24,000 nt of DNA from Inquilinus sp. GTDB taxonomy: Bacteria > Pseudomonadota > Alphaproteobacteria > DSM-16000 > Inquilinaceae. Made by a program: the position numbers and the translations under genes. The stretch's first letter is position 1; each line of letters begins with the position of its first letter. Under the pieces are notes generated by a model that worked only from the letters and a program-made list of their open reading frames with translations, was not told the DNA's origin and ran no database searches. The stretch spans positions 20,589-44,588 of the forward strand of contig NZ_JBCNNF010000006.1 of NCBI RefSeq assembly GCF_039594555.1. Direction: 5' to 3'. This document shows, piece after piece, positions 5,161 to 20,400 of this stretch.

Positions 5161-5200
5161 GGCCTTCTTCCTGGTCCTGACTGCCGCCAGCTCCCCTTTT

Positions 5201-5290
5201 TGTCATTGCCGGGCTTGACCCGGCAATCCAGGGGCGGCCAGAGCCGCTCTCCGTGGCCCCTGGATCCTCGGGTCAAGCCCGAGGATGACA
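5201..5290. repeat. Family B composite palindromic repeat, copy 2 (opposite orientation to copy 1)
   Basis: Sequence: TGTCATTGCCGGGCTTGACCCGGCAATCCAGGGGC ... GCCCCTGGATCCTCGGGTCAAGCCCGAGGATGACA. Module hairpins are at 5205-5227 and 5264-5286. It lies between the TetR stop (5303) and the ACAD start (5160). Confidence 0.9.
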
Positions 5291-5302
5291 GTAAAGGAAG
5301 GG

Positions 5303-7568: not shown

Positions 7569-7705
7569 GTCCCCCCTCCCCTCGCGGGAGGGGGCTAGGG
7601 GGAGGGGGTTGCCGATCGGAGGGGACAGGGCCTCTATCAGCTTGGCCCGGCGCATGCGGCGCGAACCCCCTCCCCCTACCCCCCTCCCGCAAGGGGAGGG
7701 GGGAC
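7569..7705. repeat. Family A composite, F-spA-R architecture (arm F2 7569-7610, spacer 7611-7663, arm R2 7664-7705)
   Basis: Both arms are 42 nt and near-identical to the other family A arms. The spacer shares GCCGnnCGGAG...AGCTTGGC with the spacer at 18981-19023. Confidence 0.95.
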
Positions 7706-7751
7706 TCAGAAAGAGAAGCCGTTCCTACTCCACCGTCTCCGGCTTCAACCC

Positions 7752-9371
7752 ATGAAGACCTGGGACGTCATCGTCGTCGGGGCCGGGCACAACGGCCTGG
7801 TGGCGGCGGGCTACCTGGCCCGGGCCGGGCTTGAGGTGCTGGTGGTGGAGAAGAACGACTGGGTCGGCGGCGCGGCCGTCAGCCGGTCGCTGCATCCCGG
7901 CATCCTCTATTCCAACTGCTCCTATGTCTGCAGCCTGCTGCGGCCGGAGATCATGCGCGACCTGGAGCTGCCGCGGCACGGGCTGCAGGTCATCCCCTAT
8001 GAGGGCGGCGCCGTGTTCACCCGCGACGGCGACGCGCTGGCGACCTATCGCCAGCACGACGCCCACCGGCGCGAGATCCAGCGCTTCTCGCTGCGCGACG
8101 CCGAGGCCTATGACCGCTACTCGGCCGACGTCACCCGGCAATGCCGCTTCATCCGGCCGCTGCTGCTGCGCACGCCGCCGGACCCGGCGTCGCTGCGGCC
8201 GCGCGATTTGCAGGAGATGCTGTATCTCGGCCGCAGGTTCCACGGCCTGACTGAGACCGAGATGGCCGACACCATCCGGTTCTGGACCATGAGCATCGCC
8301 GAGTTTCTGGACGAGTATTTCGAGAGCGAGGTGGTGAAGGCCGGCTTCGCCCTGTCCGGCATCATCGGCACCGCGCTCGGCCCGTGCTCGCCCGGCTCGG
8401 CCTATGTGCTGCTGCACCACTACATGGGCGATGTCGACGGCGCCACCGGGGCCTGGGGCTTCGCCCGCGGCGGCATGGGCGCCATCACCCAGGCCATGGC
8501 CGGGTCGCTGCGGGCGGCGAAGGGCGAGATCCGCACCGGCGCCGCGGTCGAGCGCATCCTGGTCGAGAACGGCAGGGCCGCCGGGGTGGTGCTGGCGGGC
8601 GGCGAGGAGATCCGCGCCCGGCAGGTCGTCTCCAACCTCGACGTCAAGCGCACCTTCCTGACCTTGCTGGAAGAGCGGGAGCTGCCGGCGCCCTTCGTCA
8701 AGCGCGTCCGCGCCTTCAAGATCCGCGGCTCCTCCGGCAAGGTGAACATCGCGCTGGACGCCCTGCCCCGCTTCCCGGCCCTGCCGGAGGGGTCGCCCTG
8801 CCTGCGCGGCGACATTCACTTCACCGACAGCGTCGAGCGAATGGAGCGCGGCTATGACGACTGGAAGGCCGGGCGATGGTCGGCCGACCCGTTCCTGGAC
8901 ATGATGATCCCGACCACGCTGGACCCGACCATGGCGCCGCCGGGGAAGCACTTCATGAGCTGCTTCGTCCAGTACTGCCCGCCCAGGGTCGAGGGCCGCG
9001 ACTGGACCGATGCCGACCGCGACGCCTTCGGCCAGACCGTGATCGACCAGATCGCCGACTATTCGCCCGGCTTCCGCGACCTGATCCTGCATGCCGAGAT
9101 CCGCACCCCGCGCGAACTGGAGGCCGAGGTCGGCCTGACCGAGGGCAACATCTTCCAGGGCGAGCTGACCTTCGACCAGATCCTGTTCAACCGGCCGGTG
9201 CCCGGCTACGCCCAGTACCGATCGCCGGTGGCGGGGCTGTACATGTGCGGCTCTTCCACCCATCCGGGCGGCGGGGTGATGGGGGCGCCGGGCCGCAACG
9301 CGGCGGCGGAGGTCCTGCGCGACCTGAAGCGCCGGCCCGCGGTGATGAGCGACGCCTATGACGTCCTTTGA
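7752..9371 (+). CDS. NAD(P)/FAD-dependent oxidoreductase, phytoene desaturase (CrtI)/amine-oxidase fold, paralog 1
   Basis: 539 aa. N-terminal dinucleotide fold DVIVVGAGHNGLVAAGYLARAGLEVLVVEKNDWVGG. C-terminal GLYMCGSSTHPGGGVMGAPGRNAA. Confidence 0.88.
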   Translation: MKTWDVIVVGAGHNGLVAAGYLARAGLEVLVVEKNDWVGGAAVSRSLHPGILYSNCSYVCSLLRPEIMRDLELPRHGLQVIPYEGGAVFTRDGDALATYRQHDAHRREIQRFSLRDAEAYDRYSADVTRQCRFIRPLLLRTPPDPASLRPRDLQEMLYLGRRFHGLTETEMADTIRFWTMSIAEFLDEYFESEVVKAGFALSGIIGTALGPCSPGSAYVLLHHYMGDVDGATGAWGFARGGMGAITQAMAGSLRAAKGEIRTGAAVERILVENGRAAGVVLAGGEEIRARQVVSNLDVKRTFLTLLEERELPAPFVKRVRAFKIRGSSGKVNIALDALPRFPALPEGSPCLRGDIHFTDSVERMERGYDDWKAGRWSADPFLDMMIPTTLDPTMAPPGKHFMSCFVQYCPPRVEGRDWTDADRDAFGQTVIDQIADYSPGFRDLILHAEIRTPRELEAEVGLTEGNIFQGELTFDQILFNRPVPGYAQYRSPVAGLYMCGSSTHPGGGVMGAPGRNAAAEVLRDLKRRPAVMSDAYDVL

Positions 9372-10914
9372 CGCCATCGTCATCGGCGGCGGCCATAACG
9401 GCCTGGTCTGCGCCGCGCTGCTGGCCAGGAAGGGCCGCAAGGTGGTGCTGCTGGAGGCGGCCGGGGAGGTCGGCGGCGCCGCCCGGACGGTGGAGTTCGC
9501 ACCGGGCTTCCGCGTCTCCCATGTCGCGCATGTGCTGAACCAGCTGCATCCGGAGGTGATCAAGGCACTGGACCTGAAGCGGCACGGCCTGGCGCTGGCG
9601 GCGAGCACCATCCCGACCACGGCACTGGCGGCGGACGGCCGGCACCTGACGCTGCACGGCGCCTTCGGCGAGCGGCTCGCGGGCAGGCTGCCGGCCGGCG
9701 AGCCCGAGGCCTGGGCCGCGCTGCGCGCCCGGCTGCTGCGCTTCGCCGGCGCGCTGCAGCCGTTCCTGACCCAGGTGCCGCCCCGGCTGCGCGGCGGCGG
9801 GCGCGGCGACGCGCTGGCGCTGGGCAAGCTCGGCTGGGCGATCCGCCGGCTGGGCCGCGAGGAGATGCGCGAATTCCTGCGCATGATCCTGATGGACGTG
9901 GCCGACGTGCTGGAGGAGGAGCTGTCGGATCCACGGCTGATGGGCACCGTCGCCTTCGATGCGGTGCTGGGCACCCATCTCGGCCCCCGCTCCCCGACCT
10001 CGCTGCTGGCGCTGCTGCACCGGCTGGCCGGGCAGGCGGACGGCGTGCCGGCGGCGCTGGCCCTGCCCAGGGGCGGCATGGGCACGATCGCCGCCGCCAT
10101 CGCCGCCGCGGCCCGGGCCGCAGGCGTCGAGATCCGCACCGATGCGCCGGTGGCGAAGATCCTGGTCGAGGAGGACCGCGCCGTCGGCGTCATTTCGGCG
10201 GAGGGGGCGGAGATCCGGGCCCCGGTCGTCGTCTCCGGCGCCAATCCGCGCACCACGTTTCTCGACCTGCTCGGCCCGCGGGCGCTCGATGCCGGCTTCG
10301 TCCGCCGCATCGGCCATGTCCGCATGCGCGGCAACGCCGCCAAGCTGCACCTGGCGCTGGACGGGCTGCCGGAGGGGCTGGACCCGACGCTGCTGGCCGG
10401 GCGGCTGGTGGTGGCGCCGGGCATCGACGCGGTCGAGGCCGCGTTCAATCCCGCGAAATACGGCGAGGCCTCGCCCGAGCCGGTGCTGGAGGCGGTGATC
10501 CCGTCCCTGACCGACCCGGCGCTGGCCCCGGCCGGCAAGCATGTCATGTCGATCGTCGCACAATACGCCCCGGCCGGGCTGCAGGGCGGCTGGGAGGCCG
10601 GCGGCCCCGCCTTCCGCGACCGCATCCTGGCCGTGCTGGAGCGGCACCTGCCCGGCCTGTCGGCGCGGGTGCTGGCGGCGGAGCTGCTGACCCCGGCCGA
10701 CCTGGAGGCCCGCTACCGCATACCCGGCGGCCATTGGCACCATGGCGAGTTGGCGGTCGACCAGCTGATGATGCTGCGCCCGGTGCATGGCGCCGGCCAG
10801 TACGCGACGCCGGTGCCGGGCCTGTATCTCTGCGGCGCCGGCAGCCATCCCGGCGGCGGGGTGATGGGCGCCGCCGGCCTGAACGCCGCGCGCCGGATCC
10901 TGGCGGGAGGGTGA
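9358..10914 (+). CDS. NAD(P)/FAD-dependent oxidoreductase, CrtI/amine-oxidase fold, paralog 2
   Basis: 518 aa. DAIVIGGGHNGLVCAALLARKGRKVVLLEAAGEVGG and C-terminal GLYLCGAGSHPGGGVMGAAGLNAA. Its start overlaps the upstream paralog by 14 nt. Confidence 0.88.
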   Translation: MTSFDAIVIGGGHNGLVCAALLARKGRKVVLLEAAGEVGGAARTVEFAPGFRVSHVAHVLNQLHPEVIKALDLKRHGLALAASTIPTTALAADGRHLTLHGAFGERLAGRLPAGEPEAWAALRARLLRFAGALQPFLTQVPPRLRGGGRGDALALGKLGWAIRRLGREEMREFLRMILMDVADVLEEELSDPRLMGTVAFDAVLGTHLGPRSPTSLLALLHRLAGQADGVPAALALPRGGMGTIAAAIAAAARAAGVEIRTDAPVAKILVEEDRAVGVISAEGAEIRAPVVVSGANPRTTFLDLLGPRALDAGFVRRIGHVRMRGNAAKLHLALDGLPEGLDPTLLAGRLVVAPGIDAVEAAFNPAKYGEASPEPVLEAVIPSLTDPALAPAGKHVMSIVAQYAPAGLQGGWEAGGPAFRDRILAVLERHLPGLSARVLAAELLTPADLEARYRIPGGHWHHGELAVDQLMMLRPVHGAGQYATPVPGLYLCGAGSHPGGGVMGAAGLNAARRILAGG

Positions 10915-10960
10915 GATGGGTGAGATGAGGGCCTTTGCCAAACGCGCGCCCTTGCTCTTT

Positions 10961-11004
10961 GAGTCCCCCCTCCCCCTGCGGGAGGGGGGTAGGGGGAGGG
11001 GGTT
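10961..11004. repeat. Family A single arm F3 (core 10963-11004)
   Basis: GAGTCCCCCCTCCCCCTGCGGGAGGGGGGTAGGGGGAGGGGGTT, located 22 bp from the DUF559 stop codon. Confidence 0.95.
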
Positions 11005-11026
11005 CTCGACGCACGAGCCAGCCCCA

Positions 11027-11368
11027 CTAGGTCTCACTTTCCCGGGTCAGCACGGCCGCGATCGTCTGCACGACACCGGCAAGCTCACTCATGACCTGCT
11101 CGTTGGAGAAGCGCACGACGCGGAAGCCCTGGTTTTCCAGCCAGCGCGTTCTCCGGGCGTCGGCGTCAAAGGTCAGCTCATGCGACGGCCCATCGATCTC
11201 GATCACCAAATGCTCCGAGAGGCAGACGAAATCCACGATGTAAGGGCCGAGACGGTATTGGCGCCGGAAACGGAGGCCGCCGACACGCTTGTCTCGCAAC
11301 TGGTGCCACAGCAGCAGCTCGGCTTCGGTCTGGTTCTGCCGCAGGAACTGAACACGTGGATCGGCCAT
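11027..11368 (-). CDS. DUF559 endonuclease-domain protein (Vsr-like, PD-(D/E)xK superfamily)
   Basis: ORF 11027..11461 trimmed to the ATG at 11368; the first 31 codons of the long ORF are only a translation of repeat arm R4. MADPRVQFLRQNQTEAELLLWHQLRDKRVGGLRFRRQYRLGPYIVDFVCLSEHLVIEIDGPSHE...RWLENQGFRVVRFSNEQV is the typical DUF559 pattern. GAGG lies about 10 nt upstream. Hand count gives 213/342 = 62% G+C. Confidence 0.85.
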   Translation of the reverse strand: MADPRVQFLRQNQTEAELLLWHQLRDKRVGGLRFRRQYRLGPYIVDFVCLSEHLVIEIDGPSHELTFDADARRTRWLENQGFRVVRFSNEQVMSELAGVVQTIAAVLTRESET

Positions 11369-11385
11369 CGGCCTGCTGCCTCGAA

Positions 11386-11517
11386 AACCCCCTCCCCCTA
11401 CCCCCCTCCCGCGAGGGGAGGGGGGACTGGAGCGGTGCAGGTTGAAGGAATGCTCTCCCAACCCGAACAGACAGAGTCCCCCCTCCCCTCGCGGGAGGGG
11501 GCCAGGGGGAGGGGGTT
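11386..11517. repeat. Family A composite, R-spB-F architecture (arm R4 11386-11427, spacer 11428-11475, arm F4 11476-11517)
   Basis: Both arms are 42 nt. The spacer resembles the spacer at 2650-2695 (TGCA..G..TGA..G.AT..CTCTCC(C)AACC(C)G.....AC). R4 starts 17 bp upstream of the DUF559 ATG. F4 ends 31 bp before the GcvT-like start. Confidence 0.95.
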
Positions 11518-11548
11518 CTCACCGCTGGGCAGGGACGGGGCCTGAGCC

Positions 11549-12757
11549 ATGCGACGCCCCCTGCCCCGCGACCATTTCCGCCGCCCACTGCTGCAGACGC
11601 CGTTCCACCCGCGCCTGGCGGCGCTGATGCAGGCCGAGGACTGGTATAATTGGGGCGGCTATGTCTCCGCCCGCACCCTCCGGGACGCCGAGCAGGAATA
11701 CTTCGCCATCCGCAACGCCGCGTCGCTGTTCGACCTGACGCCGATGGTGAAGTACCGCATCGCCGGGCCGGAGGCCGAGGCGTTCCTGGACCGGCTGACC
11801 GTGCGCGACGTCTCGAAGCTCGCCGTCGGCCGGGTGCACTACACCTGCTGGTGCGACGACGAGGGCCATGTGCTGGATGACGGCACGCTGTTCCGCCTGG
11901 GCGCCGCCGAGTTCCGGCTGTGCTGCCAGGAGCGGCACCTGAACTGGCTCCTGGACTCCGCCATCGGTTTCGAAGTCGAGGTCGCCGAGGAGACCGAGCA
12001 GGTGGCCGCCCTGGCGCTGCAGGGCCCGACCAGCCGGGCGCTGCTGACCCGCGCCGGCTTCGACGGCATCGAGACGCTGAAGCCCTTCCAGATCCGCGAC
12101 TTTCACCTGGATGAGGGCCGGGTCACCGTGTCCCGCACCGGCTTCGCCGGCGACCTGGGCTACGAGCTGTTCGCCGAGCCTGAGGCGGCGCTGCCGCTGT
12201 GGGACCGGCTGTGGGCGGCCGGCCCCTGGCACGGGCTGCAGGCGATCGGCTTCGCGGCGCTGGACCTGGCGCGGCTGGAGGCCGGCTTCATCATCGCCAA
12301 CAGCGACTTCGTCACCGCCGAGACCGCGATCCGCGTCGACCGCCGCCGCACGCCGGACGAGATCGGCCTGGGCTGGCTGGTGGACGAGAAGAAGGCCGCC
12401 TACTGGACCGGCAAGCGCGCCATCCTGGCCCAGCGCCGCGACCGGTCGGCCCGCTGGTGCCTGGTCGGGCTGGACATCGACGGCAATGTCCCGGCCGACC
12501 ATGCCATCGTCTACCACAAGGGCAAGGTTGAGGCCGGGCAGATCACCGCCGCCGCCTGGTCGCCCTCGGCCAAGCGCAACATCGCCCTGGCCTCGCTGCG
12601 CCGGCCCTATGGCGACACGGTGAAGGAGGATCTCTGGGTCGAGATCTACGCCCTGCGCGAGCTGGTCTACCACAAGCTGATGGTACGGGCCCGGGTGGTG
12701 GACCGGCCCTTCTACGACCCGCCGCGGCGCCGGGCCACGCCGCCGGCCGAGGTCTGA
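11549..12757 (+). CDS. Aminomethyltransferase (GcvT) family, folate-binding protein, stand-alone
   Basis: 402 aa. FDLTPMVKYRIAGPEAEAFLDRL, YTCWCDDEGHVLDDGTLFRL, VSRTGFAGDLGYELF, LDLARLEAG. Confidence 0.88.
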   Translation: MRRPLPRDHFRRPLLQTPFHPRLAALMQAEDWYNWGGYVSARTLRDAEQEYFAIRNAASLFDLTPMVKYRIAGPEAEAFLDRLTVRDVSKLAVGRVHYTCWCDDEGHVLDDGTLFRLGAAEFRLCCQERHLNWLLDSAIGFEVEVAEETEQVAALALQGPTSRALLTRAGFDGIETLKPFQIRDFHLDEGRVTVSRTGFAGDLGYELFAEPEAALPLWDRLWAAGPWHGLQAIGFAALDLARLEAGFIIANSDFVTAETAIRVDRRRTPDEIGLGWLVDEKKAAYWTGKRAILAQRRDRSARWCLVGLDIDGNVPADHAIVYHKGKVEAGQITAAAWSPSAKRNIALASLRRPYGDTVKEDLWVEIYALRELVYHKLMVRARVVDRPFYDPPRRRATPPAEV

Positions 12758-12758
12758 G

Positions 12759-14819
12759 ATGGGCCACCGGCTGGACCCGCTGCTGCGCCCCCGCTCGATC
12801 GCGGTGGTCGGCGCCAGCGCGCGGCCCGGCTCGGTCGGCGCGGTGATGCTGCGGCAGCTGGTCGAGGGCGGCTTCCCCGGCCCGGTGCATCCGGTCAATC
12901 CGAAGGGCGGGACGCTGCAGGGCCTGCCCTGCCTGCCCGCGATTGCCGACCTGCCCGAGCCGGTGGAGCACGCCGCCTTCTGCCTGGGCGACGAGACCAT
13001 CGCCGAAGCCTTCGCCGCGGTGCTGCGGCATGGGGTGAAGGCCGCGACCATCGTCGCCCCGCTGGCCGATCCGGCCCTGCGCGACCGCATCCGGGCGATG
13101 GCGCTGGAGGCCGGCGTCGTGCTGTGCGGCGGCAACGGCATGGGCTTCTACAACTTCACCGGCCGGGTCCGGCTGTGCGGCTTCGCCACCCGGCCGGACC
13201 ATGTCCCCGGCGGCGCCGTGCTGCTGACCCATTCCGGGTCGCTGTTCACCGCCCTGGTCGATGCCGAGGCGCGGATCGACTACGCCCTCGCCGTCTCCTC
13301 CGGCCAGGAGCTGACCACCACTTTGGCCGATTATCTCGACTTCGCCCTGGACCAGCCGGAGACCCGCGTGGTCGGGCTGTTCCTGGAGGCGGCGCGGGAC
13401 CCGGAGCGCTTCGTCGCAGCGTTGGCGAAAGCGCAGGCGCGCAACATCCCGGTGGTGGCGCTGAAGGTCGGCCGGACACGGGAGAGCGCGGCGCTGGCGC
13501 TGAGCCATTCCGGCGCCATCGCCGGCGACTACGCCGTCTATGACGCGCTGTTCGAGCGCTTTGCCGTCGGCCAGGTCCGGTCGGTGGATGAGCTGGCGGC
13601 GGCGATGATGCTGCTGCCGGTGGCCGCGGATCTCGGCCCCGGCGGCCTGGCCAGCACCCATGACAGCGGCGGCGAGCGCGGGCTGATGGTCGACCTGGCG
13701 GCCGAGGCCGGGGTGCGCTTCGCCAGCCTGTCGCCGGAGACGGTGGTCCGGCTGGAGGCGACGCTGGATCCCGGCCTGCCGCCGGTCAACCCGCTGGACC
13801 ATTGGGGCACCGGCCGCAACCACCCGGCCGATTTCGAGGCCTGCGTCCAGGCGCTGATGGCCGACCCGGACACCGCCCTGGGCGCGCTGGCGCTGGACCG
13901 CTCGGTCGGCGGCCAGGTGACACCGCTGTATCTCGAGGTGGCGCGCCGGGCCCGGGCGGCCAGCGGCAAGCCGGTGGTCATCGTCTCGAACCACCAGGGC
14001 AGCGGCGGCGACCCGGCGGCCGTGGCCTCGACCCGCGCCGGCGTGCCGGTGCTGGACGGGGTGCCGGCGGTCCTGCGGGCCTGCCGCATCGCCTTCGATC
14101 GGCGCGACGCCGCTGCCCGGCCGCCGATGCGCCCGCCGCCGGCCCCGGAGGCGGCGGTGCGGCGCTGGCGGGCGCAGCTGGCCGACGGGCACCCCGTCAC
14201 CGAGGCCGAGGCTTTGCGCCTGCTGGCCGATTTCGGCCTGACCGTGACGCCCTGCGCCATGGCCAAGGACGAGTCCGAAGCGGTCGAGGCGGCGATGCGG
14301 ATCGGCTTCCCGGTGGCGCTGAAGACCGCCGGCACGGCGCATAAGAGCGATGTCGACGGGGTGCGGCTGAACCTGGCTGACCCTGTGGCGCTGCGCCAGG
14401 CCCATCGCGACCTGGCGGTGCGGCTGGGCCCGCGCGTGCTGGTGGCGCGGATGGTCCGGGACAAGGGCGTGGAGATGATGCTGGGGCTGCAGCGCGACCC
14501 GGATTTCGGGCCGGTGGTGGTGATCGGCTTCGGCGGCATCCATGCCGAGATCCTGCGGGACGCCGCCTTCGCCCTGCCGCCCTTCGACGCCGCCGAGGCG
14601 CGGCGGCTGATCGACCGGCTGCGGCTGCGCCCGCTGCTGGACGGCGCCCGCGGCGCCCCGGCCGCCGACATCGATGCCCTGGCCGCGGCGGCCGCCCGCT
14701 TCTCCGCCCTTGCCGCGGCGCTGGGCGACCTGGTCGAGGCGATCGACGTCAACCCGGTCCTGGCCCTGCCGCGCGGCGCCGTCGCCGTCGACGCGCTGGT
14801 CGTGGGGCGGCGCGGATGA
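12759..14819 (+). CDS. Acetate--CoA ligase family protein (ADP-forming acyl-CoA synthetase: CoA-binding, succinyl-CoA-synthetase-like and ATP-grasp domains)
   Basis: 686 aa. N-terminal RSIAVVGASARPGSVG (CoA-binding). C-terminal ATP-grasp GFPVALKTAGTAHKSDVDGVRLNL. The ATG lies 1 nt after the upstream TGA. Confidence 0.85.
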   Translation: MGHRLDPLLRPRSIAVVGASARPGSVGAVMLRQLVEGGFPGPVHPVNPKGGTLQGLPCLPAIADLPEPVEHAAFCLGDETIAEAFAAVLRHGVKAATIVAPLADPALRDRIRAMALEAGVVLCGGNGMGFYNFTGRVRLCGFATRPDHVPGGAVLLTHSGSLFTALVDAEARIDYALAVSSGQELTTTLADYLDFALDQPETRVVGLFLEAARDPERFVAALAKAQARNIPVVALKVGRTRESAALALSHSGAIAGDYAVYDALFERFAVGQVRSVDELAAAMMLLPVAADLGPGGLASTHDSGGERGLMVDLAAEAGVRFASLSPETVVRLEATLDPGLPPVNPLDHWGTGRNHPADFEACVQALMADPDTALGALALDRSVGGQVTPLYLEVARRARAASGKPVVIVSNHQGSGGDPAAVASTRAGVPVLDGVPAVLRACRIAFDRRDAAARPPMRPPPAPEAAVRRWRAQLADGHPVTEAEALRLLADFGLTVTPCAMAKDESEAVEAAMRIGFPVALKTAGTAHKSDVDGVRLNLADPVALRQAHRDLAVRLGPRVLVARMVRDKGVEMMLGLQRDPDFGPVVVIGFGGIHAEILRDAAFALPPFDAAEARRLIDRLRLRPLLDGARGAPAADIDALAAAAARFSALAAALGDLVEAIDVNPVLALPRGAVAVDALVVGRRG

Positions 14820-17490: not shown

Positions 17491-20400
17491 CCTCCCATCG
17501 CCTGGCCCAGGGCGGGCTGATCGACCGGTCGGCGCGGCTGGGCTTCACCTTCGACGGGCAGCGCTACGAGGGCCATCCCGGCGACACGCTGGCCTCGGCC
17601 CTGCTGGCGAACGGCGTGCGGCTGGTCGGCCGCAGCTTCAAGTACCACCGGCCGCGCGGCATCCTGTCCGCCGGGTCGGAGGAGCCGAACGCCCTGGTCG
17701 AGCTGCGGACCGGCGGCCGGCACGAGCCGAACACCCGCGCCACCATGGTCGAGCTGTATGACGGGCTGGCGGCCAACAGCCAGAACCGCTGGCCGTCGCT
17801 CAGCTTCGACGCGCTGGGCGTGGTCAACGGCCTGCTGGCCCCGGTCTTCCCGGCCGGCTTCTACTACAAGACCTTCATGTGGCCGGCCTCGTTCTGGGAG
17901 CCGGTCTATGAGCGGATCATCCGCCGCGCCGCCGGCCTGGGCACCGCGCCGACTGAGGCCGACCCCGACCGCTACGAGCGCCGCCATGCCTTCTGCGACG
18001 TTCTGGTGGTCGGCGGCGGCCCGGCGGGGCTGAGTGCTGCGCTGGCCGCGGCCGAGGCCGGCGCACGGGTGATCCTGTGCGACGAGGGCGACCGCTTCGG
18101 CGGCAGCCTGCTGGGCGAGGACGAGCCGGTCGAGAGCCGTCCGGCGACGGAATGGGTGGCCGACCGGCTGGCGGCACTGCAGGGCTTCGGCGACCGGGTG
18201 ACGCTGGTGCCGCGCGGCATGGCCTTCGGGGTCTACGACCACGGCACGGTCGGCTTGGTCGAGCGCGTTGCCGACCACCTTCCCGAGCCGCCGCCGCACC
18301 TGCCGCGCCAGCGCTTCTGGACCATCCGGGCCGCAGCGATCGTGGTCGCGGCCGGGGCGATCGAGCAGCCGCTGGTGTTCCCGAACAACGACCGCCCCGG
18401 CGTGATGCTGGCCGGCGCGGCGCATCGCTACGCCCATCGCTATGCCGTGGCCCCGGGCAAGCGGGTGCTGGTGGCCGGGATCGACGACGGCGCCGCCCGC
18501 GCCGCCCTGGCGCTGAAGCGGCACGGGGTCGAGGTCGCCGGGCTGGTCGACAGCCGGGCCGCCCTGCCCGGCCCCCTGGCGGAGGCGCTGCGCGCCGCCG
18601 GCATCGCGGTCCATGCCGGCTCCGCCCTTCGCGGCGCCAGGGGCCGCCTCGGCGTCGAGGGCGCCCGCATCGGCGCGGCCGACGGCAGCGGCAGAGCCAT
18701 CGCGATCGATTGCGACGCCATCGCCATGTCCGGCGGCTGGATGCCGACCACGCATCTCTTGAGCCAGCGCGGCATCCGCCCGAAGCTGGACTGGACCCGC
18801 GGCGGCTATGTGCTGCCGGATCTCGACGGCCCGCTGCTGGCCGCCGGCGCCTGCGCCGGCCGCGCCACCACCGAGGCCGCGATCGCCGACGGCCTGGCGG
18901 TGGGACGGCAGGCTGCCCAATTCCGGCAAATTATGAGAGTCCCCCCTCCCCTCGCGGGAGGGGGCAAGGGGGAGGGGGTTGGTGCCGCCGGAGCAGAATC
19001 CGCGGGTTTGAGCTTGGCTTCGACACCCCCCTCCCCCTCCCCCTCCCCCTACCCCCCTCCCGCAGGGGGAGGGGGGACTCCATTGGAGAACCTGCCCCGC
19101 CCTGCTCCCATACCTGCCACAGCCCCCGCGGTCACCGACCCGCAGGTGGCCGGCAAGGCTTTCGTCGACTTCCAGAACGACGTCACCGCCGCCGATGTGC
19201 GTCTGGCCGCGCGCGAGGGCTACACCTCGCCCGAGCATATGAAGCGCTACACCACCCAAGGCATGGCGACGGACCAGGGCAAGACCTCGAACGGCCCGGC
19301 CCTGGGCGTGCTGACCGATGCCCGCGGGCTGCGGCCGGGCGACCTGGCGGCGCCGACCTTCCGTCCGCCCTACACCCCGGTCGCCTTCGGCGCGATCGCC
19401 GGCCGGTCGGTCGGCTGGCACGCCGTCCCCAGCCGGCGGACGCCGTTCGACGAGTTCCACCGGGCCGACGGCGCCGTCTTCGTGCGGTCCGGCGGCTGGA
19501 TGCGGCCGCTCTACTACCCGCGTCCGGGAGAGACGCTGGGCCAGGCATCGCTGCGCGAGGCCCGGCATGTCCGGTCGCAGGTCGGCGTGTTCGACGTCTC
19601 GACCCTGGGCAAGGTCGACGTCTGCGGCCCCGACGCCGCTTCGTTCCTGGAGCGGCTCTATGTCAACCGGATCGAGACGCTGCCGGTCGGCCGCTCACGC
19701 TACGGCATCATGCTGCGCGACGACGGCATCGTGATGGATGACGGTACCGTGACCCGGCTGGCCGAGGACCGCTTCTACGTCACCACCACCAGCGCCAAGG
19801 CGCATGACGTGGTGCGGATGATGGAGCGGCTGACCGAGGTCGACTGGCCCGATCTTCGGGTGGCGGTGACGGAGGTGACGGAGGCCCGCGCGGCGCTGGC
19901 GCTGACCGGCCCCGAGGCCCGCACGGTGCTGGCCCGGCTGGTCGGCGACGCCGCCGACGTCTCGAACGAGGCCCTGCCCTTCATGGCGGTCCGCGACGTG
20001 AGGCTGGGCGGCCTGCCGCTGCGCATCCTGCGCGTCAGCTTCACCGGCGAGCTGGGCTACGAGCTGCATGTCGAATCCCAGCACGCGCCGGAGCTGTGGC
20101 GGCGCCTGATCGCGGCCGGCGAGCCGGCCGGGCTGCGGCGCTTCGGGCTGGAGGCGCTGGAGCTGCTGCGGATCGAGAAGGGCTTCCTGACCGGCGCCGA
20201 GATCAACGGCCAGACCACCCTGGCCGACCTGGCGCATGAGCGCTTCGCCAAGCGCGAGGGCAACTACGTCGGCAAGCCGATGTCGCTGCGCGAGGGCATG
20301 GCCGACCCGGACCGGCCGCGGCTGGTCGGGCTGGTGTCGGAGGATGGCGCGCCGCTGGTTTCCGGGGCCCATCTGGTCGAGGGCGGCATGTACCGCCCGA

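Follow-up and report, generated by a model that had tools for sequence, protein, structure and literature searches.

Why should a small nuclease gene lie between inverted copies of a short hairpin repeat, antisense to the genes on either side of it? The question is raised by a 24,000-nt stretch of DNA from Inquilinus sp. (contig NZ_JBCNNF010000006.1, positions 20,589 to 44,588; "the window" below always means this whole stretch), in which a DUF559 gene is framed by two such repeats, here called arms. An original prediction, made from the letters of the window alone, held that the DUF559 nuclease is tied to these hairpin repeats. As we describe below, gene and arms very probably constitute a mobile unit that is specifically linked to one repeat family. 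The analysis adds to the prediction a discrete gene–arm unit, and a pairing of gene and repeat that generalizes to many phyla and to ycjD of Escherichia coli.

The gene (11027-11368, minus strand; 113 aa plus stop) encodes a predicted nuclease of the YcjD-like, Vsr-like PD-(D/E)xK kind. The protein scores above the gathering score of PF04480 (DUF559) and spans the entire domain, which is the criterion for membership (E=4.3e-37, 126.7 bits, the cut-off being 20.6; positions 8-108 of 109), and it matches the PRK09767 (YcjD) model over its full length (E=2e-26, positions 11-115 of 117). Its closest solved structure is 3HRL, a DUF559 protein of Neisseria gonorrhoeae (E=7e-19 with the single sequence). 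When a profile of the DUF559 family is compared with the PDB, 3HRL is matched at E=3e-37, the nuclease domain of I-Bth0305I (3R3P) at E=3e-4, and E. coli Vsr (1CW0) at E=0.59. The acidic/histidine core is conserved: in 21 diverse homologs, E. coli YcjD included, D46, D59, and H63 are invariant and E57 is at least 90% conserved (motif D46 / E57-x-D59 / H63). Among the Inquilinus paralogs, dN/dS is 0.10-0.25 (dS 0.33-0.78); the protein is therefore kept by selection, that is, it is under purifying selection. The open reading frame (ORF) differs in composition from its neighbors, with a G+C content of 62.3% (213/342) compared with 70-75%, and a G+C content at third codon positions (GC3) of 0.80 compared with 0.94.

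The two framing arms are F3 (10961-11004, plus strand, two mismatches to the consensus), which is the downstream arm in gene orientation, and R4 (11386-11428, minus strand, no mismatches to the family consensus), which is the upstream arm. They are inverted copies, 92% complementary over 52 nt, and are separated from the gene by only 22 nt (F3) and 17 nt (R4). The 17-nt leader between the upstream arm and the ATG (11369-11385, minus strand; TTTTCGAGGCAGCAGGCCG region) is conserved among paralogs by alignment, and beyond the downstream arm an outer extension (10947-10960, minus strand; ACTCAAAGAGCAAGGGCG on the gene strand) matches ACTCAAAAAGGGC, the sequence found beyond the downstream arm in units of Inquilinus limosus. 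Most of the original description of the locus holds: the DUF559 ORF between arms given as 10963-11004 and 11386-11427, the two gaps, the strand opposite to that of both flanking genes, and the hand count of 62% G+C (213/342), which an exact count reproduces. The predicted block, 10961-11517, has its arms as described, but its right end belongs to a third arm that had been overlooked, F5 (11474-11517, plus strand, found by repeat comparison), which forms an R..F doublet with R4. The layout in the window is thus RF|gene|R, with the R4..F5 doublet on one side of the gene and F3 on the other.

Beyond this unit, the window holds further arms that enclose no gene. Eight copies of the 42-mer occur within three mismatches (none in 100 shuffles), and a ninth, more diverged copy lies at 19039-19080; the nine arms are spread over four intergenic gaps. 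The gene-less doublets comprise an R..F pair at 2608-2737 (arms 2608-2651 and 2696-2737), which the original prediction missed, and F..R pairs at 7569-7707 (arms 7569-7610 and 7664-7707, 53-nt spacer) and 18937-19080 (arms 18937-18980 and 19039-19080). The spacer of the last pair had been put at 43 bp, for a doublet read as 18939-19078; we measure 56-58 nt. ViennaRNA folds F3 into alternative hairpins at -17.2 kcal/mol, the R4..F5 doublet (11382-11521) at -62.1 kcal/mol (z=-9.8), and the doublet at 7569-7707 at -63.2 kcal/mol (z=-7.9).

How did the unit come to lie where it does? Its neighbors, both on the plus strand and assigned by domain search, are an FAD amine oxidase gene on the left (9358-10914) and a GcvT-like aminomethyltransferase gene on the right (11549-12757). 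Using orthologs of the latter (94-95% protein identity), we found four sister sequences, one genome contig and three metagenome contigs (L085-L088), that are 92-95% identical in DNA to the window. All four lack the block from 10911 to 11547: blastn synteny breaks at 10910/11548, and 637 nt in the window replace 8 nt in the sisters. In 4/4 of these empty junctions the stop codon of the amine oxidase gene abuts the gcvT start, as TGAcATG (..GCCCGCTGAcATGCGCC..), and the empty site (GGCGGAGGCCCGCTGACATG) carries no arm. An absence of empty sites, which would have counted against the original prediction, is thus not what is found; its expectation that deletion would leave a gap of about 80 bp does not hold, the real empty site being the abutting stop and start. 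The insertion supplied the amine oxidase gene with a new stop codon (10912-10914). This codon is carried by the left copy of an imperfect 14-nt direct repeat (10902-10915; GGCGGGAGGGTGAG), and the right copy (11533-11546; GGACGGGGCCTGAG) has a relic of the old stop codon, immediately before the gcvT-like ATG. The two copies match at 9/14 positions, and both resemble the empty-site sequence GGCGGAGGCCCGCTGA. The unit, with an extra arm, entered this site within a 637-nt insertion into a tight gene junction, and the insertion is recent. The gene-less doublets vary as well: that at 18937-19080 is absent from sister locus L085, and that at 7569-7707 has a diverged counterpart there. Gene-less F..R doublets may serve as targets of insertion, as in homing; no orthologous pair of a gene-less doublet and a gene-bearing unit was found among the loci compared.

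The same unit occurs elsewhere in the genus. The window protein matches a DUF559 protein of an Inquilinus sp. at 100% identity. DUF559 paralogs or orthologs at 79-88% identity are present in I. limosus and relatives, and every Inquilinus paralog examined is framed by the same arms, located by blastn-short, as the original prediction would have it. These copies occupy four unrelated chromosomal sites: that of the window, site A (between an Aminotran_5 aminotransferase gene and a Bmp lipoprotein gene), site B (between xdhC and a xanthine dehydrogenase gene), and a fourth site in Inquilinus ginsengisoli. In one 20-kb locus (L004), the only four arms present flank its two DUF559 genes. In gene orientation the unit reads "..CACAATGG", F arm, about 17-22 nt, ATG to stop, about 15-35 nt, R arm, "CAAAAAGGGC..", and the arrangement of the gene relative to its inner flanks is identical in 7/7 Inquilinus copies. 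Homology between sites is limited to the arms and the gene, about 470-490 bp, and ends at the arms. Because one unit is found at several sites, with homology that ends at the arms and with empty sites, we regard it as very likely that gene and arms form one mobile unit. At sites A and B, which are common to several divergent Inquilinus genomes, the flanking genes are 83-92% identical, so these insertions are old and vertically inherited. The arms are at least 95% identical across the divergence of the paralogs, and are therefore either more constrained than the protein or homogenized. At site B of I. limosus strain Inq (L003 3391-3625), an extra F..R doublet lies inside the downstream arm, relative to strain DSM 16000, and a remnant of the old arm is left; arms may therefore themselves be insertion targets.

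What, then, are the arms? The original prediction treated them as an unnamed, dominant 42-nt repeat, but a literal sequence search of the literature places them, by sequence, in the known BoxC / PIT / triplex-motif (TM) family. Such repeats have reportedly been known since the 1990s; Bachellier et al. (1990s) and Hoyne, Maher et al. (2000) are said to be the sources. The family is defined by three consecutive blocks (Y, R, R) with short loops, a stem of 6-15 nt, and at most one mismatch (PMC4666352), and the arm of the window falls into just these blocks: CCCCCCTCCC / CTCGC / GGGAGGGGGG / TA / GGGGGAGGGGG. The order is a pyrimidine block, a short loop, the complementary purine block, a linker of 2-3 nt (TTA/CTA/GTA), and a second purine block. 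Arm sequences vary among taxa but follow one plan, a hairpin of 9-12 bp whose 5' half is pyrimidine and whose 3' half is purine; all 20 distinct arm stems are complementary, with loops of 2-5 nt. After the stem there is usually TTA/CTA/GTA, sometimes a second small hairpin, and then a G-rich tail (e.g., GGATGGGGG or GGGTGAGGG). Holder et al. (2015, PMC4666352) describe triplex motifs as highly conserved intergenic elements, known from more than 260 genomes and often arranged as tandem inverted pairs. The DNA around them is unusually variable, the motifs are linked to local genome instability and known as indel hot spots, and they show neither promoter or terminator activity nor a tie to transposons, phages, or plasmids; the family is without known function, partner protein, or means of spread (PMC4666352). 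The E. coli variant has been studied by circular dichroism and nuclear magnetic resonance, and forms a triplex in vitro (PMC4666352). ViennaRNA applied to the arms shows just two alternative hairpins. Two other common denominators were considered and rejected. A canonical G-quadruplex is found in 14 of 24 diverse arms, compared with a hairpin plus purine tail in all of them, and a fixed Vsr-type CTWGG site in the linker is contradicted by the dinucleotide before AGG, which varies (CT, GT, CC, CA, GC).

The pairing of DUF559 genes with such repeats extends well beyond Inquilinus. A one-genome-per-species scan yielded 80 loci with DUF559 homologs, mostly at 43-58% identity, from Alpha-, Beta-, Gamma-, and Deltaproteobacteria, Dehalococcoidia, Dormiibacterota, Legionella, Pseudomonas, and others. 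Inverted repeats scoring at least 25 frame 28 of the 73 nonredundant DUF559 genes; by comparison, they frame 2 of the 417 other ORFs of these loci and 0 of 760 random positions with matching geometry. We also built a generic detector for the triplex-type architecture, which recovers all nine arms of the window. With this detector, a motif lies within about 200 nt of a gene end in 69/79 homologs, and on both sides in 52/79; motif density is 2.37/kb near the DUF559 gene and 0.10/kb in the remainder of these loci. The most frequent layouts are F|gene|R (29 loci) and RF|gene|R, that of the window (six loci). The pairing recurs in the annotated records of Sinorhizobium meliloti pSymB, where the RF|gene|R layout is also found, and of a Synechocystis plasmid. 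A published list of predicted inversion targets, i.e., genes with inverted repeats, shows an enrichment of DUF559 (odds ratio 14), on which it offers no comment (PMC9881135). The pairing is thus specific and conserved across phyla, and chance is excluded as its explanation.

Several details of these loci deserve mention in their own right. On pSymB (L212 2320-3045), the framing repeat is the whole R-spacer-F doublet, about 135 nt per side, and a copy of ISRm16 lies directly downstream. In a gammaproteobacterial metagenome-assembled genome (L075 4817-5459), the DUF559 gene has short triplex-type motifs and, in addition, lies within a 110-nt inverted repeat of another, AT-rich kind, so that there are also longer composite ends. 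Tails such as SPSPLAPLPQGERG or PPPPAPSRKGRG are seen at the C-termini of many DUF559 proteins in databases (C-termini of the alignment; L211 2471-2938). These tails, including "PSPL..GEG", are the translated downstream arm, and therefore an annotation artifact that betrays the repeat. The antisense placement seen in the window is a peculiarity of Inquilinus, and as a trait of the family it was rejected: by crude ORF calls, 34 genes have the same orientation as their neighbors and 6 the opposite.

In E. coli, the type gene of DUF559, ycjD, encodes a full-length homolog of the window protein. A canonical arm (GGTCCCCTCGCCCCTCTGGGGAGAGGGTTAGGGTGAGGGG) lies 168 nt downstream of its stop codon, which is itself overlapped by a degenerate arm. 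Holder et al. number this canonical arm TM_ECO no. 9 (1,351,204-1,351,239; PMC4666352). With 18 BoxC loci in 4.64 Mb, the chance that one lies within 200 nt of a given gene is about 0.002. E. coli K-12 has one ycjD gene and 23 copies of the repeat. The gene is single-copy and present in 3378/5426 complete E. coli genomes, and the block of about 660 bp that holds ycjD and TM no. 9 alternates, between fabI and sapF, with the 7.9-kb eefRABCD operon, an allele without a BoxC motif that replaces the ycjD block in 38% of E. coli genomes. In K-12 (L209 4164-4822, fabI-ycjD-sapF) the block also includes a second, partial copy of the 3' end of ycjD and, upstream of the gene, a perfect hairpin of 17 nt. 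Across a spread sample of 59 chromosomes, BoxC places number 14-29 (median 20) where the ycjD-linked locus is present and 1-24 (median 6) where it is not, a difference (Mann-Whitney p=8.5e-9) that is uncorrected for phylogeny and involves few independent lineages. It is in the direction that a functional link predicts. Counted as copies, BoxC ranges from 1 to 32 per E. coli genome and is about threefold higher with the ycjD-linked locus in the spread sample, again uncorrected for phylogeny.

Most arms, on the other hand, enclose no gene at all. We scanned metagenome contigs for the exact 38-nt arm core and obtained 80 loci (578 kb, 42-75% G+C) with 133 arms; together with the arms of the window, the set comprises 35 F..R doublets, 6 R..F doublets, and about 60 unpaired arms. 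Just one of the 80 loci has a gene enclosed by a close pair of inverted arms; it is a DUF559 gene whose product is 45% identical to the window protein. Arms thus outnumber the gene by about two orders of magnitude (roughly 100:1), as REP/REPIN outnumber RAYT, and this makes the RAYT/REP analogy drawn in the original prediction an apt one. Its reading of the gene-less F...R doublets as derivatives of an autonomous element, in the manner of MITEs (transposable elements of the miniature inverted-repeat type), fares less well. Doublet interiors are heterogeneous (one family of 17 has a common GCGCGCG hairpin), and the best match between a spacer and the unit is a 12-mer (E=0.004 among 881 high-scoring segment pairs). 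Because their interiors are unlike that of the unit, the doublets are not its deletion derivatives. Two metagenome contigs (L117 7416-8040 and L162 10049-10673) each hold three arms in the same orientation with an exact period of 292 nt, a tandem array and not a doublet.

Taking these lines of evidence together, we lean toward a combined reading in which the locus is a compact mobile module, selfish or semi-domesticated, made of a DUF559 nuclease within inverted BoxC-type arms and with the nuclease servicing the arms. Its parts differ in strength: that gene and arms move as a unit tied to this repeat family is by far the firmer, and whether the nuclease acts on the arms we judge to be evenly balanced. 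By analogy with RAYT for REP/REPIN, the DUF559 nuclease would be the partner protein of an orphan repeat family. It would recognize the arm as a pyrimidine/purine hairpin with a conserved YTAGG..G-rich tail, perhaps only when the arm is extruded or single-stranded, as alternative hairpins or a triplex, and would nick or break the DNA at that point. The recombination, replication, or repair of the host might then copy or relocate the DNA between or beside the arms, be it the gene itself or a gene-less doublet, and the same process could yield the local instability reported around the motifs. The broadest version, that YcjD-like DUF559 nucleases are the missing partner enzymes of BoxC/PIT/TM repeats and define a new pan-bacterial class of nuclease-driven elements that use host repair for copying, we offer tentatively, as somewhat less than an even chance.

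A number of observations weigh against this combined reading and should be kept in view. That DUF559 proteins bind or cut the arms is a prediction, and Holder et al. saw no triplex in vivo (PMC4666352). A hydrolytic PD-(D/E)xK nuclease cannot religate DNA, so the joining step must come from the host. The window insertion has no clean target-site duplication, only the 9/14 direct repeat (nor do sites A and B or the I. ginsengisoli site show one), and the stability of sites A and B since the split of divergent Inquilinus genomes means that movement is rare. The family itself is rare on plasmids (38/72,556 records) and nearly absent from phages. The I. ginsengisoli copy (L010 5001-5345) is a pseudogene with two in-frame stops and both arms intact. 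Of the metagenome arms, 131/133 have no DUF559 gene in their vicinity; homologs only 45-54% identical are flanked by one and the same 38-nt core, so that arms do not co-diverge with the protein; and no significant similarity exists between the 35 doublet spacers and unit interiors. Finally, in E. coli the repeats persist in genomes without ycjD, at 1-24 copies, and the copy-number difference carries the phylogenetic caveat given above.

Much of this is what one would expect if the arms were an independent REP-like family, moved by some other enzyme or by replication errors, for which DUF559 is a favored cargo or landing place. The roughly 100:1 excess of arms, mostly solo or in gene-less doublets, the doublet interiors unrelated to the gene, the constancy of the arm sequence whatever the divergence of the enclosed protein, the pseudogene between intact arms, and the persistence of repeats in ycjD-less E. 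coli all fit a passenger gene. Such a history would leave unexplained why framing is specific to DUF559 (2/417 other ORFs, and DUF559 as the sole framed gene in 80 arm-selected loci), why polarity and spacing are conserved across phyla, and why a would-be useless cargo is under purifying selection; moreover, the window ORFs tested showed neither a transposase nor a RAYT domain. We therefore consider a passenger role unlikely, if the most serious of the alternatives.

Less probable still is that the protein is a housekeeping repair nuclease, of very-short-patch or structure-specific type, whose arms are cis elements (a 5' leader hairpin, a 3' stabilizer or terminator, autoregulatory sites), with the unit moved by generic illegitimate recombination. 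The DUF559 protein VsrA of Caulobacter does act in a methylation-linked damage response (PMC12907096), and a resident role would suit the low copy number, the vertical inheritance of sites A and B, the usual co-orientation of the gene with its neighbors across the family, and the fact that the motifs are known indel hot spots. The great excess of gene-less arms means, however, that arms are not primarily gene-specific regulators; PIT elements had no promoter or terminator activity in earlier work (cited in PMC4666352), and here no consensus promoter or terminator is seen, scans for sigma-70 promoters and intrinsic terminators over 10850-11600 having detected none. Nor does a housekeeping gene sit well with the insertion of the unit into a translationally coupled gene pair, with its atypical GC3 (0.80 vs. 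0.94), or with the absence of a methyltransferase from the window. The arms, being long and near-perfect inverted repeats, could also be imagined as recombination sites of an invertible switch, such that flipping turns the nuclease gene on or off. That is highly improbable given that all seven Inquilinus copies have one gene-to-inner-flank arrangement and that no invertase or recombinase was found nearby, and inversion would explain neither the presence/absence polymorphism nor the thousands of gene-less arms.

Other searches around the gene help to delimit what the locus holds. Transposase and integrase domains, including Y1_Tnp, are absent from the larger ORFs of the window tested, as the original prediction stated. 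No cytosine methyltransferase linked to the DUF559 gene occurs in the window, the PADLOC defense models do not match the protein, and PHROGs give only weak matches, to families of unknown function. Rfam at a permissive E-value over 10800-11700 returned generic hairpin (microRNA) matches below threshold only, and no family. Elsewhere in the window, two tandem paralogous FAD amine oxidase genes (7752-9371 and 9358-10914) overlap at stop and start, and motifs common to both account for several of the "direct repeat" families obtained by repeat finding. Another palindromic repeat, about 100 nt long and unrelated to the arms (TGTCATCCTCGGGCTTGACCCGAGGATCCAG...), occurs at 361-466 and 5191-5300; the copies, each itself an inverted repeat, are mutually inverted and 4.7 kb apart, and sister locus L085 (141-239) has one of them too. 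The segment 12762-15846 (the CoA-ligase/ATP-grasp gene at 12759-14819 and the next ORF), which is present in metagenome contigs L086/L087 and missing from L085, is a second indel polymorphism in the cluster.

The significance of the combined reading lies in the joining of two orphans. DUF559 is a very large family of small nucleases without known function for most members, E. coli YcjD included. The arms and the protein family are both known entities, and what appears to be undescribed is their link and their behavior as a mobile unit. In the literature searched we found no published connection between DUF559/ycjD/COG2852/PF04480 and these repeats, in line with the original prediction, and neither the triplex-motif paper (PMC4666352) nor a related G-quadruplex paper mentions a nuclease or ycjD anywhere. 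A physical link across phyla offers each orphan a candidate partner, the first for this repeat family, and can be tested directly in E. coli K-12. A new element class, if real, would explain the spread of the repeats in hundreds of genomes and the instability around them. The link would also account for the common annotation artifact of "PSPL..GEG" tails on DUF559 proteins.

How does the unit compare with systems already described? Like published BoxC/PIT/TM repeats, the arms of the window are intergenic, multicopy, highly conserved, often in tandem inverted pairs, and located in indel-prone places. They differ in that the Inquilinus variant has CCCCCCTCCCC/GGGAGGGGGG instead of CCCTCNCCC/GGGNGAGGG, and in that the published elements are orphan structural repeats without a link to a protein or mobile element, whereas in our case a nuclease gene lies between them and they move together with it. 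With MITEs and their autonomous insertion sequences, and with IS200/IS605 TnpA elements, the unit has in common noncoding inverted-repeat elements that are polymorphic among strains and whose ends, terminal inverted repeats, are common to gene-bearing and gene-less copies and form hairpins. The difference is that we found neither a DDE/HUH transposase nor a clear target-site duplication, and the doublet interiors are unrelated. The sole ORF in the unit is DUF559 and not a recognized transposase.

Among nucleases, the comparison with Vsr, and with VsrA of Caulobacter (PMC12907096), rests on a common fold superfamily and annotation label. The family of the window is only marginally similar to E. 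coli Vsr (1CW0, E=0.59), the repeat linker is variable with no fixed CTWGG, and no linked cytosine methyltransferase occurs in the window. The EDxHD homing endonucleases are represented by I-Bth0305I, reportedly a protein of about 266 aa with extra DNA-binding regions, encoded in a group I intron or intein. Here too the nuclease domain is Vsr-like (3R3P, profile E=3e-4; PMC3239194), and the nuclease gene shows presence/absence polymorphism at a precise site. The protein of the window is, by contrast, free-standing, 113 aa long, and framed by repeats, and the sister genomes offer no preexisting homologous target at the new site.

The closest parallel is REP/REPIN-RAYT. In both cases a low-copy, vertically inherited gene is flanked by an inverted short hairpin repeat that is far commoner elsewhere as singlets and inverted doublets, and the doublets are not deletion derivatives of the gene. 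The enzymes differ, a hydrolytic Vsr-like PD-(D/E)xK nuclease here and an HUH (Y1) tyrosine transposase there, and the repeat of the unit has a third purine block and is without the 5' GTAG-hairpin signature. A REP-type GTAG (or CGTC) tag was considered and rejected because the tetranucleotide after the stem varies (CTAG, GTAG, CCAG, CAAG, GCAG) and lies 3' of the hairpin; likewise, membership in REP/RAYT was set aside since no RAYT (HUH Y1) gene is among the window ORFs tested and the framed gene is DUF559. In function the unit most resembles RAYT/REP, yet it fails the tests that define that system, namely the HUH transposase and the GTAG tag. Should the nuclease act on the repeats, the unit would join RAYT/REP as a second case of a genome-wide repeat family maintained by a resident enzyme, here one with a different fold and a non-B-DNA substrate.

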